Source: Candidatus Nomurabacteria bacterium (lineage in GTDB: Bacteria > Patescibacteriota > Minisyncoccia > Phycocordibacterales > UBA9973). Taken from it: 64,000 bases of DNA. The stretch lies in assembly GCA_943350875.1 (NCBI GenBank), contig CALRAL010000002.1:68221-132220 (forward strand). The letters run 5' to 3'. Shown here in pieces: positions 40,219 through 42,363 of this stretch. The notes beneath the pieces are model-generated. The model did not search any database and had not been told where the DNA came from. It was given only the letters and a program-made list of their open reading frames with translations. Made by a program: the position numbers and the translations under genes. Position 1 is the first letter of the stretch, and each line of letters begins with the position of its first letter.

Positions 40219-42363
40219 ATGGGAAAATTTGAAGCGGAAAAGAGAATACAAAAACTTCGCGATGAAATAAAAAGATTGCGTGAAGCATATCATACAGAAA
40301 ATGTTCCAAATGTGACAGATGATGTGTATGATTCTCTAACTCGTGAATTAAAATCTCTAATTAAAAAATATCCAGAATTTGAAGACCCAAATGCTCCAGA
40401 GAACAGAGTAGCAGGTAAACCACTAGATAAATTTGTTAAAGTACATCACAAGGCTCGGATGCTTTCTTTGAATGATGTTTTCAACGAAGAGGAATTATAT
40501 GATTGGGAGAAAAGAATTAAGAAACTATTGCCCCCCTCTCCTTTACAAGGAGAGGGGCAGGGGGGTGAAGTAAATTATTTCTGCGAAGTAAAATTTGACG
40601 GGCTTGCTGTATCACTTATTTATGAAAATGGTAAATTTGTGCGTGGAGCTACACGTGGAGATGGGCTCATCGGGGAGGATATAACACAGAATTTAAAAAC
40701 TATAAATTCTATACCTCTTCAATTAAACCCCCTCCTTAATAAGGAGGGGGTTGGGGGTGGTATACCTTCGTATCTCGAAGTCCGCGGTGAAGCCTTGATG
40801 TCCAAAAAAACTCTCATTTCTTTGAACAAAAAGAATGAAAAAGAAGGCAAGCCAGCCTTTGCCAATTCTAGGAACGCTGCCGCTGGGAGCTTGCGTCAGC
40901 TTGATCCAAAGTTATCTGCTGAAAGGAAACTTGATTTTTACGCTTATGATATTGCTGAGATTATTTTTTCCTCCCCCCTTGTGAAGGGGGGGATTGAAGG
41001 GGGGTGGTATCCTCATACCCATTCAGAAAAACATGCTTATTTAAAAAAGCTTGGTTTTAATGTTGATGGCAATGATGCAATTTGTAAAAATTTAGAAGAA
41101 GTCATAGCTTTTATTAGAAAATTTGAAAAGATAAGATCAGATTTCCCTTATGGTACAGATGGGATAGTTATATCAGTTGATAATTTAAAATTACAAGAAG
41201 TACTAGGTGTCGTAGGTAAAGCTCCACGTTATATGGTAGCGTTTAAGTATCCAGCAGAGAAAGCAACGACGATAGTAAAAGATATAAAAATAAATGTTGG
41301 ACGTACAGGGGTACTTACTCCGCTTGCGCTTTTTGAGCCGACACTTGTGGCTGGTTCTACTGTATCCAAAGCAACCTTACATAATATGGACCAGATAGAA
41401 AGGCTTGATTTACGGATAGGTGACACAGTGGTGATAGAAAAGGCGGGGGATGTGATTCCAAAGGTTGTAGAAGTATTAGTTAAAATGCGTACCGGCAAAG
41501 AAAAGAAATTTAAAATGCTGGAAAAATGTCCTGCTTGTGGTGGCAAAGTTGAAAAGAAAATTTCTGGTTGGAAAAGGTCAGACCTTAAGAATTTTAAAAG
41601 GTCTGTCCTTGAGGAGCCAGAGCTGTCGGTGGCTTATTATTGTATTAATCCAAAATGTTCTGCAAAAAATGAGAGGTATCTAGAGCATTTTGTGCAAGTT
41701 TTTGAGATTTATGAATTAGGGCCTAAAATATTGCGTAGGTTCAAAGACGAAGGCTTGATAACTGATGCAGGTGATATTTTTATCCTTACAAAAGAGGACA
41801 TAGCTCCGCTCGAGAGGTTTGGCGAAAAGAGTGCCGAAAACATAATACAGGAAATAGAAAATAAAAAGAAAATAACACTTTCTAGATTCTTGTCTGCATT
41901 AGGGATATTACATGTAGGAGAAGAAACGGCGCGAGATTTGGCAAGTAATTTTGGCACATTAGAAAACTTAATACTTTGCGTTAGGCAAGACCTAACGCAA
42001 ATTGATAGTATAGAAAATATCGGTCCAGCAGTGTCAAAGAGTGTGTATGAATTCTTCTGTGATAAAAATAATTTAAATTTTATACAAAAGTTGAAAGAAA
42101 ATGGTGTAGTGATAAAAAAAGAGGACAAAAAGAAAGATGGAAAGTTTAAAGGGCTCACTTTTGTGCTCACTGGTACTCTTTCTCAAATGTCTCGTGAAAT
42201 TGCTAAAGAGAAAATAATAGCCCTCGGTGGCAAGGTCTCAAGCTCTGTGTCTAAAAATACTTCTTATGTAGTAACCGGCGTAGAAGCTGGGTCCAAATTG
42301 GCTAAGGCTCAAAAGCTAGGGGTAAAAATAATAGAAGAGAATGAGTTTCTAAAGATGCTTTAG
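40219..42363 (+). CDS. ligA: NAD-dependent DNA ligase LigA (with three GC-rich palindromic in-frame insertions)
   Basis: KFDGLAVSL adenylation motif, OB fold, Cys4 zinc finger (CPACGG...C), HhH, C-terminal BRCT. Confidence 0.9.
40531..40566 (+). repeat. GC-rich palindromic mini-element (C5...G4-6...G5-6 type) inserted in frame in ligA
   Basis: CCCCCCTCTCCTTTACAAGGAGAGGGGCAGGGGGG encodes [12 protein letters not shown]. Sister copies at 40727-40760, 40972-41008, 52445-52470 (pheT), 34613-34686 (intergenic x2) and 61089-61116 (intergenic). Confidence 0.7.

Follow-up and report, generated by a model that had tools for sequence, protein, structure and literature searches.

The textbook case of palindromic DNA inserted in frame into protein-coding genes is that of the Rickettsia palindromic elements (RPEs; Ogata et al. 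2000, as summarised in PMC10969869). Intragenic repetitive extragenic palindromic (REP) sequences form a documented class in which RPE-4 and RPE-6 have been counted; they are enriched in replication and repair genes, and their dimers encode 20–30 amino acids (Di Nocera et al. 2013, PMC3733652). REPINs (REP doublets forming hairpins) are, in turn, inverted REP doublets mobilized by RAYTs, tyrosine transposases that are associated with REPs (Bertels & Rainey, PMC3337134). Here we examine a 64-kb stretch of Nomurabacteria DNA (34.9% GC; hereinafter the window), in which GC-rich palindromic islands lie within the genes for the NAD-dependent DNA ligase LigA and for PheT. We consider it probable that these islands are in-frame, translated half-copies of a dispersed family of non-autonomous palindromic mobile DNA, which we term family A. 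Literature searches returned no published description of such elements in the Candidate Phyla Radiation (CPR), or of the family-A sequence. Since family A works like REPs and RPEs, departs from them in several respects and has no published description that we could find, we assign it to a known kind, intragenic REP/RPE-like elements, within which it is a new family from a new lineage.

The first host gene is the open reading frame (ORF) at 40219–42363 (714 aa), whose product matches the E. coli LigA structure 2OWO over residues 7–714 (E 8.5e-155), has the full domain set recognized by Pfam in its homologues and retains K125, D127 and G128 of the adenylation motif KxDG, which are invariant in the alignment. 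The second is the pheT ORF at 52338–54158. The best LigA homologues carry the names Candidatus Nomurabacteria, Paceibacterota or Patescibacteria, and on the basis of this naming the genome is assigned to the CPR, as an earlier note on this DNA, made from its letters alone, had surmised. For comparison, we used 80 related ligA loci with DNA (81 ligA genes including that of the window), together with further related loci and viral contigs, all labelled with L-numbers (e.g., L001, L019 and L071).

A regular expression for the motif (C4+ / N2-22 / G4+ / N1-10 / G4+, both strands) finds eight sites in the window, seven on the plus and one on the minus strand. In 200 sequences simulated with a first-order Markov model, the mean was 0.045 sites and none had more than 1. 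Four of these are coding: three in ligA (40531–40565, 40728–40757 and 40973–41004), all in frame with the ligA ORF, and one in pheT (52446–52467). The remainder are intergenic (34614–34640 on the minus strand, 34658–34683, 61089–61114 and 52247–52273). The GC-rich sequences that the earlier note had quoted are all present where it placed them, and ORF translation gives the Pro/Gly-rich peptides that it had read from the ligA islands; the elements extend a few bases beyond the ends it had set, and one subfamily, A1, has a conserved 3′ tail, GGGGGTGAGGTGAAT. In a general hairpin scan ligA is the most hairpin-rich gene of the window, with five strong palindromes. An assembly artefact is ruled out by the recurrence of the elements in dozens of independent metagenome-assembled genomes. 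The features are collected in the table below.

Table. Family-A copies, other palindromic inserts and the RAYT locus in the window (positions are those of the 64-kb stretch).
Feature	Positions	Strand	Composition and support
ligA element 1, half-copy, subfamily A1	40531–40575	+	CCCCCCTCTCC-TTTACAA-GGAGAGGGG-CA-GGGGGG + tail TGAAGTAAAT; LigA aa 105–119; covariance-model E 0.022
ligA element 2, half-copy	40726–40762	+	AACCCCCTCC-TTAATAA-GGAGGGGGTT-GGGGGTGG; LigA aa 170–181; 12-bp perfect stem, z −4.2; covariance-model E 3.6e-5
ligA element 3, half-copy	40972–41008	+	TCCCCCC-TTGTGAA-GGGGGGG-ATTGAA-GGGGGG-TGG; LigA aa 252–264; covariance-model E 1.4e-5
pheT copy	52444–52471	+	CTCCCCTCC-TTG-GGGAGGAGGGGG-CTGG; encodes TPLLGEEGAG, PheT aa 37–46; covariance-model E 0.011
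Complete double-hairpin element, intergenic, directly 3′ of the pilC stop	34610–34688	+	covariance model 78.8 bits, E 1e-20
Solo right half, intergenic	61088–61117	+	CCCCC-TGATAA-GGGGG-ATTTA-GGGGG-TTG; covariance-model E 9e-5 (61060–61119)
Doubtful or degenerate copy, between mazF-like gene and pheT	52247–52273	+	CCCCGC-TTTC-GCGGGG-AATCTC-GGGGG; regular-expression match; covariance-model E ~2.4; fold z −1.3
Palindrome of another family, AT-richer, in frame in the ligA Zn-finger region	41574–41610	+	z −3.1; stems covary in L004, L006, L008 and L014; pLDDT <50 at aa 449–470
Palindrome of another family, in frame in the ligA helix-hairpin-helix (HhH) region	41973–42003	+	TTTGCGTTAGG-caaga-CCTAACGCAAA; z −6.9; hotspot at ~aa 590 in relatives
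Candidate second in-frame pheT insert, different family	53814–53837	+	GC island …NGLAGVGDPGNRGPE…; peptide family recurs at ligA hotspots of relatives
RAYT-like Y1 HUH transposase	35961–36641	+	PF01797, 25.6 bits (cutoff 23); NCBIfam REP_Tyr_transpos E 1.3e-6, below its cutoff
GTAG-type REP array cognate to the RAYT	35600–36669		unit TATAGCAAGAACCGTTCTTGCTACA; six copies upstream and one downstream of the RAYT

The earlier note had listed non-coding copies at 34613–34686 and 61089–61116. Both are present, but the former, which it had counted as separate copies, is a single composite. The complete element is ~75–85 nt long and comprises two inverted halves and a spacer, forming a double hairpin, with the consensus (A)AACCCC(T)CC, 3 nt, left hairpin CCTCCCC/TTATCA/GGGGAGG, 8–18 nt, right hairpin CCCCCC/TGAYAA/GGGGGG, ~5 nt and GGGGGGTT(G). 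The composite of the window follows this order, with an outer C-run, the left hairpin CCTCCCC-TTGTCA-GGGGAGG, a 14-nt spacer, the right hairpin CCCCC-TGACAA-GGGGG, ATATA, an outer G-run and TTG, and its DNA folds with −21.5 kcal/mol (z −4.4). L019, L033 and L058, too, have composites, in which the C5-loop-G5-spacer-G5-TTG motif forms the right half and its inverted copy the left, and the gap between the halves stays constant at 12–19 nt in the window, L071, L058 (two copies), L019 and L033. The solitary right half, which lies between the minus-strand thrS and the start, at 61164, of a probable rpmF, named by its L32 resemblance only, shares 26 of 29 bases with 34658–34686. RNAalifold, run on 10 and then on 18 full copies, recovers two hairpins enclosed by an outer stem, whose two strands are the outermost C-run and the “extra” G-run, and five compensatory pairs where both sides have changed with pairing kept. 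All 18 full copies end in (A)AACCCC and GGGGTT(G) and share an invariant right-hairpin core, CCCCC-TGAYAA-GGGGG, even across phyla. The composite can fold in two ways, either as two hairpins closed by the outer C-run:G-run stem or as a single long hairpin.

A covariance model built on family A (R1) was run over the window and its relatives. Its best match in the window is the composite, followed by ligA element 3, element 2, the region 61060–61119, the pheT copy and element 1. Full copies are detected in the relatives as well, in frame within ligA of L019, L033 and L058 (the last with two) and in intergenic DNA of L071 and L033. Because of the structure of the composite and these matches, we read the ligA islands from their sequence as singlets, i.e., half-copies, of family A. 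The additional G-run that follows each hairpin is indeed there, as the earlier note had observed, but the outer arm of the double hairpin is a better account of it than the device for alternative pairings that the note had proposed. The C-run/G-run/G-run layout could also allow an intramolecular purine-motif triplex. A known structured RNA family is rejected, as the elements have no Rfam match at gathering or even permissive thresholds beyond spurious miRNA-like hairpin matches. So is a tRNA-derived origin: the 12-mer CCCTGATAAGGG equals the anticodon arm of a tRNA-Ile, but neither ARAGORN nor the Rfam tRNA model calls any element, and we treat the likeness as a coincidence.

The alignment with orthologs places these islands as lineage-restricted additions to both proteins. 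Against the E. coli LigA structure, the window's protein has gaps of 8, 8 and 11 aa exactly at elements 1, 2 and 3, in addition to an insert of ~18 residues in the Zn-finger, and none of the solved LigA structures in the alignment has these segments, in line with the view that they lack a counterpart in canonical LigA. Within the 81 ligA genes, the site of element 1 is vacant in ~55 (…KKLLPA|NTKFNYFC), and its carriers are scattered on a neighbor-joining tree of 642 core LigA columns. Element 2 is common only to L001, L003 and, in extended form, L039 and L071, while element 3 is found in the window only. The codons of element 1, CCC and GGG, are atypical for ligA. In the AlphaFold2 (AF2) model of LigA (mean predicted local distance difference test score, pLDDT, of 74), the inserts correspond to coil with pLDDT <50 at 110–114, 173–179, 253–261 and 449–470, located between confidently modelled strands and helices, with the catalytic residues intact; the model thus suggests that the inserts occupy fold-tolerant loops, in keeping with the surface position that the earlier note had proposed to check. 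Of 22 PheT orthologues, 4 have the segment TPLLGEEGAG, most of the others being 6 aa shorter there. As a separate observation on PheT, the protein aligns to solved PheT chains at residues 1–36 and then from 48, with ~118 N-terminal B1/B2 residues missing, and its family-A insert stands exactly at the junction of the missing region.

The family-A islands are part of a much larger set of palindromic inserts in this lineage. LigA ranges from 669 to 784 aa among 120 homologues at 69–77% identity, with insert hotspots in the relatives at ~aa 108, 173, 255 and 454 and, more rarely, at 533, 590, 596 and 691. Dozens of other palindromic families occupy these same hotspots, and individual peptide and DNA families reappear in other species at other hotspots, in either orientation. 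The ligA gene is open through all inserts in 78 of the 80 relatives, in which ~200 inserts of many families are, without exception, a multiple of three in length and free of stops. In the ligA of L064, there is an in-frame stop or local frameshift at ~aa 539, outside the insert hotspots, which is probably an assembly error or a pseudogene. The inserts average 54% GC, versus 39% for the genes. For the 135 inserts of at least 6 aa, the minimum free energy per nt is −0.41, as against −0.15 for native ligA segments (p = 3e-38) and −0.22 for their own shuffles, and 71% of them lie beyond the 5th percentile of the shuffles. At site 4, stems that differ in sequence nonetheless stay paired (AGGTCAGACCTT, AGGCAAGACCTT, AGGACAGTCCTT and AAACCGGGCTTT). 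Out of 66 matches to the family in the window and relatives, 56 fall in ORFs of at least 90 aa and ~40 in ligA; the density is ~2.3 per 10 kb in ligA versus 0.2 per 10 kb in its flanks, with the ligA value inflated by shared ancestry.

In-frame palindromes that belong to family A or are related to it are further seen at another PheT site, in PheS and in a TruB-like protein. In the window, recG (ORF 21375–23675, minus strand) contains at 23103–23138 a 30-nt perfect GC-rich palindrome, TCCGCCCAAGGCGGATCCGCCTTGGGCGGA, in frame within an inter-domain linker, where it encodes FSAQGGSALGGK. Two TCCGCC…GGCGGA hairpins akin to it are seen in the 5′ region of a pilin gene (34774–34788 and 34820–34834), and together they probably represent another palindromic family.

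Several lines of evidence indicate that family A is dispersed: copies are found in other genes and in intergenic DNA, in both orientations and nested in older copies, as the earlier note's notion of a dispersed palindromic family had implied. Nesting is seen in ligA of L058, where a composite lies within an older hairpin, and in the viral contig L172, which has a nested extra hairpin. The near-identical composites of the window and L071 both stand directly 3′ of the pilC stop codon. Across ~60 syntenic loci this pilC–pilin spacer is vacant in many, whereas others contain family A, in either orientation, or unrelated palindromic families; where it is vacant, the stop runs straight into a conserved TGTGGATAAC…TTGC…TATAAT block. 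This promoter-like block, TGTGGATAAC(T)…TTGC…TATAAT…AAATAAGTCGAAA, is strongly conserved 5′ of the major pilin gene throughout the ~60 Nomurabacteria loci and reads TGTGCATAAC in the window (~34699–34760).

Family A is not confined to the CPR, being present in records from Gammaproteobacteria and a cyanobacterium and in Mu-like phage contigs. An exact-pattern scan of viral contigs yields 15 carriers, several of which have 45–64% GC and contain the full composite almost base for base, with three copies within 4.4 kb in L165. The large ORFs on these contigs have their matches among MuA-type transposases from phages of Pseudoalteromonas, Ralstonia and Rhodobacter, and MuA or GemA markers are present in at least six of the carriers. 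In the Mu-like contigs (L161, L165–L167, L169–L172 and L175), several full or half copies are located between genes, and others are in frame within phage ORFs, e.g., that for a MuA-like transposase (L166, 13130–13155). By blastn, the composite is also found in a Moraxella plasmid (in the narG–narH spacer), an Aeromonas caviae record and a Pseudanabaena plasmid, while neither the composite nor segments of the phages gave a blastn match in E. coli genomes or in the INPHARED phage collection. One could go further and posit that family A is a cosmopolitan, horizontally moving REPIN-like double hairpin, which transposable (Mu-like) phages may carry between phyla and competent CPR cells may take up, which has its invariant right hairpin recognized by a conserved protein, which remodels together with dozens of sister families, as a general mechanism, the surface loops of essential Paceibacteria proteins of replication, repair and translation, and which has copies under nucleotide-level selection within genes as functional dual-coding DNA or RNA; taken as a whole, we regard this scenario as rather unlikely.

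How does this family compare with the known systems? The reading given in the earlier note is supported by each of the checks that it had proposed, with two refinements, the double-hairpin structure of the full element and its occurrence beyond the CPR. The analogy to RPEs that the earlier note had drawn is apt, also in view of the documented intragenic REPs in replication and repair genes (PMC3733652). As with RPEs, palindromic repeats in a reduced AT-rich genome are inserted in frame into unrelated genes (those for LigA, PheT, PheS and the TruB-like protein, and phage ORFs), including housekeeping ones, at points that the fold tolerates, as judged from the low-pLDDT coil of the AF2 model. 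Several families coexist in both cases and in neither is the transposase known. However, family A is set apart from RPEs by described length (30–85 nt versus ~100–150 bp; PMC10969869), and its host belongs to a CPR episymbiont lineage rather than to Rickettsia, with copies outside that lineage as well.

The resemblance to REPs and REPINs extends to the architecture. The family-A halves are GC-rich imperfect palindromes of ~30 nt with GC stems of 5–12 bp; the full unit is made of two inverted halves and a spacer that can form a long hairpin, and 34610–34688 folds in this manner. Singlets are common, target-site duplications are wanting and copies occur just 3′ of ORFs. Like intragenic REPs, the copies add 10–30 aa to products of replication and repair genes (here LigA, and RecG in the case of other palindromes), and the genome of the window encodes a RAYT. 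In contrast, the ends of family A are AACCCC and GGGGTT, without the GTAG or CGTC tag of classical REPs. About half of its copies in the window are coding, whereas REPs are overwhelmingly extragenic, and it is conserved across phyla and phages, unlike REPIN families, which are usually lineage-specific and vertically inherited. A further likeness is with the mitochondrial GC clusters, double-hairpin elements and repetitive hairpin-forming elements (for example PMC2800124 and PMC6649704), which are likewise GC-rich hairpin or double-hairpin modules that spread in AT-rich compact genomes, in part coding and nested. These are, however, organellar and unrelated to family A in sequence, so that the analogy is one of behavior only.

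The RAYT-like gene of the window lies 1.3 kb from the full family-A copy and encodes the motifs MTNHFHLLV and LGYIHLNPL. Given this gene with its REP array and its 2,394 homologues, which are mostly from the CPR, machinery for hairpin-DNA transposition is present and widespread in the lineage. Its cognate repeat, however, is a different one, with the core GCAAGRAC-N-GTYCTTGC: among 80 RAYT homologues nearly all have this core on both sides, at about −50 and +10, and this other REP of the window (GTAG-CAAGAAC…) does have the GTAG tag. Family-A repeats flank neither the window's RAYT nor any of the 80 homologues, and three more distant RAYTs have yet other palindromes. Thus, the window RAYT is unsupported as the mobilizer of family A, although it may act across families. 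A candidate autonomous element in L165 was likewise rejected, as the family-A copies there bracket ordinary Mu-like early genes. Two further observations concern the REP family itself. A pilin-like ORF (35399–35600, MKNFKKGFTLIELLVVIAIIG…) runs directly into the REP array, and its present form may reflect truncation or remodelling by an inserted REP. Moreover, 3′ of the RAYT genes of L109, L114, L126 and L160, the GTAG-REP core GCAAGRAC…GTYCTTGC is enclosed in C-run/G-run outer stems (e.g., ACCCCCTCGCAAGGACGGTCCTTGCGAGGGGGT), which suggests chimeric or nested elements combining both families.

Taking the islands to be half-copies of mobile DNA, we envisage that family-A copies would land anywhere in the genome and that, in coding DNA, only those that are a multiple of three in length, free of stops and located in tolerant surface loops would survive, with their C-runs read as proline and their G-runs as glycine. 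Movement would proceed via single-stranded hairpin DNA with the help of an HUH/RAYT-type enzyme, as for REPINs; what speaks for this is that the genome encodes such an enzyme, that target-site duplications are wanting and that the architecture is REPIN-like with many singlets. An HUH/REP-type mechanism is for these reasons our best guess, if a tentative and somewhat doubtful one. Several points weigh against mobility as the explanation. We found no transposase flanked by family-A repeats, those around the window's RAYT and 80 of its homologues being of a different kind, and in the ~2 Mb examined no ORF bracketed by inverted family-A halves; the tag of classical REPs is missing. Gene strand and shared ancestry confound the orientation bias of copies relative to GC skew and replication polarity (46:11 overall and 6:4 for intergenic copies). 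No recent insertion or excision has been seen directly, the closest LigA being 77% identical, and translation of the inserts is deduced from the integrity of the ORFs. Finally, it could be a host function, and not mobility, that keeps the nucleotide sequence so strongly conserved at orthologous sites.

This last point introduces the most serious alternative, which we deem possible though on balance doubtful, namely that the hairpins persist for a host function (in mRNA stability, translational pausing, sequestration of the Shine–Dalgarno (SD) sequence or as a protein-binding site), such that they are domesticated cis-elements, with their mobile origin secondary. Among its eight carriers, element 1 is 88% identical overall, and its four-fold sites are 83% identical, as compared to a saturated 35% elsewhere in ligA, so that it is the nucleic acid itself, DNA or RNA, that is maintained or renewed. 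The near-identity of the pilC-downstream composite in the window and L071 and the invariance of the right-hairpin core in all 18 full copies point in the same direction, the stems hold strings that appear SD-like (TAAGGAGG) and anti-SD-like (CCTCCTTA), and the co-option of REPIN-type elements has been discussed in the literature (PMC3337134). Nevertheless, gene conversion off a conserved master copy could equally produce such conservation, as could insertions that are recent or recurrent. For element 1 there are two readings: either the hairpin itself is subject to selection or gene conversion, or insertion at this site has been recent and recurrent. The same sites are vacant in most relatives with no sign of harm, many unrelated palindromic families use the same hotspots, copies occur in unrelated genes and phages, and no Rfam family covers them. 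Stem mismatches, which bear on RNA- versus DNA-level selection, are few in number (five G·T versus two A·C). A role as a DNA-uptake sequence was set aside, since the copies are heterogeneous and sparse (~1 per 8 kb) and add sequence instead of recoding it.

Two other alternatives are improbable, to about the same degree. In the first, the palindromes do not arrive by transposition but originate where they now stand, at fragile hotspots, through template switching, hairpin-primed repair or replication slippage, and their likeness is convergent or due to gene conversion. This would account for the few ligA positions that repeatedly hold very different palindromes, for the outer stems of some families, which copy variable flanks as inverted repeats (e.g., GCGCCAGAGAAG and TCTCTGGCGC), for perfect stems that persist while their sequence changes and for the lack of target-site duplications. 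It cannot, however, explain family A itself, because its specific sequence of ~80 nt stays conserved between non-homologous sites and genes, between genomes and phyla, and in phages, and the nested whole copies (L058 and L172) also tell against it.

[quoted passage not shown] Like the DDE-type MITEs Correia, ERIC and Nezha, family A is small, non-autonomous, equipped with terminal inverted repeats, (A)AACCCC…GGGGTT(G), and sometimes intragenic and in frame, and the MuA or GemA markers of its viral carriers fit such a source. Yet it is much shorter than these MITEs, shows no consistent target-site duplication at the 18 full copies and has no parent IS element, none with matching ends being found in the ~2 Mb examined; no DDE or other further transposase was found in the window, and solo halves are common, as is typical of REP singlets.

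Removal of the elements from the mRNA, or their bypass by the ribosome, so that they are not translated, is very improbable. The idea comes solely by analogy from the ‘byp’ elements, GC-rich mobile inserts of yeast mitochondria, and a filter for stop-free multiples of three, as displayed by the ~200 inserts in 78 of 80 ligA genes, would be expected only if the inserts are read through; in addition, the variant with the TGATAA loop occurs in genes only in its single open frame, PPDKGG. That the segments are native ancestral loops of LigA and PheT, or a compositional oddity, is equally improbable and already effectively refuted: the second G-run of element 3 (IEGGW) does align with the native LEGGE of E. 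coli LigA, and element 1 is common to several species, but the segments are missing from the aligned solved LigA structures and most close relatives, differ from the genes in GC and in their Pro/Gly codons and share their motif, in identical form, with intergenic DNA and other genes.

Elsewhere in the window, ARAGORN calls a tRNA-Ile with the anticodon TAT (UAU) at 13796–13869, the UAU anticodon being an uncommon bacterial route to reading AUA. An ORF with a LAGLIDADG domain (24956–26056) lies between two tRNA-Ser calls (24882–24969 on the minus and 26070–26157 on the plus strand) and may be a homing endonuclease or an intron-associated gene, which would fit the group I introns reported in tRNA genes of Patescibacteria (PMC13011429). 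Rfam further identifies two ordinary RNAs, an AdoCbl-II riboswitch 5′ of a DUF4430 gene (19032–19129) and a transfer-messenger RNA on the minus strand (10633–11033).

While the kind of element is already known, what is noteworthy here is its scale in the essential genes of the CPR, its nucleotide-level conservation in coding DNA and its spread across phyla and phages. The RPE/intragenic-REP phenomenon is thereby extended to a major uncultivated radiation, whose genomes are tiny and streamlined, yet have essential genes (ligA, pheS, pheT and recG) dotted with translated palindromic mobile DNA. Related ligA genes (70–77% identity) differ by up to ~115 residues owing to such inserts, to which a large part of the variation in length of CPR proteins, and many of their Pro/Gly-rich stretches that resist alignment, can be ascribed, and which bear on annotation, phylogenomics and structure prediction. 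The near base-for-base conservation of family A from the CPR to Gammaproteobacteria, cyanobacteria and Mu-like phages offers a handle on the protein that mobilizes or binds it. Moreover, the inserts constitute a natural experiment on the insertion tolerance of essential enzymes and on selection for nucleic-acid structure within coding DNA.

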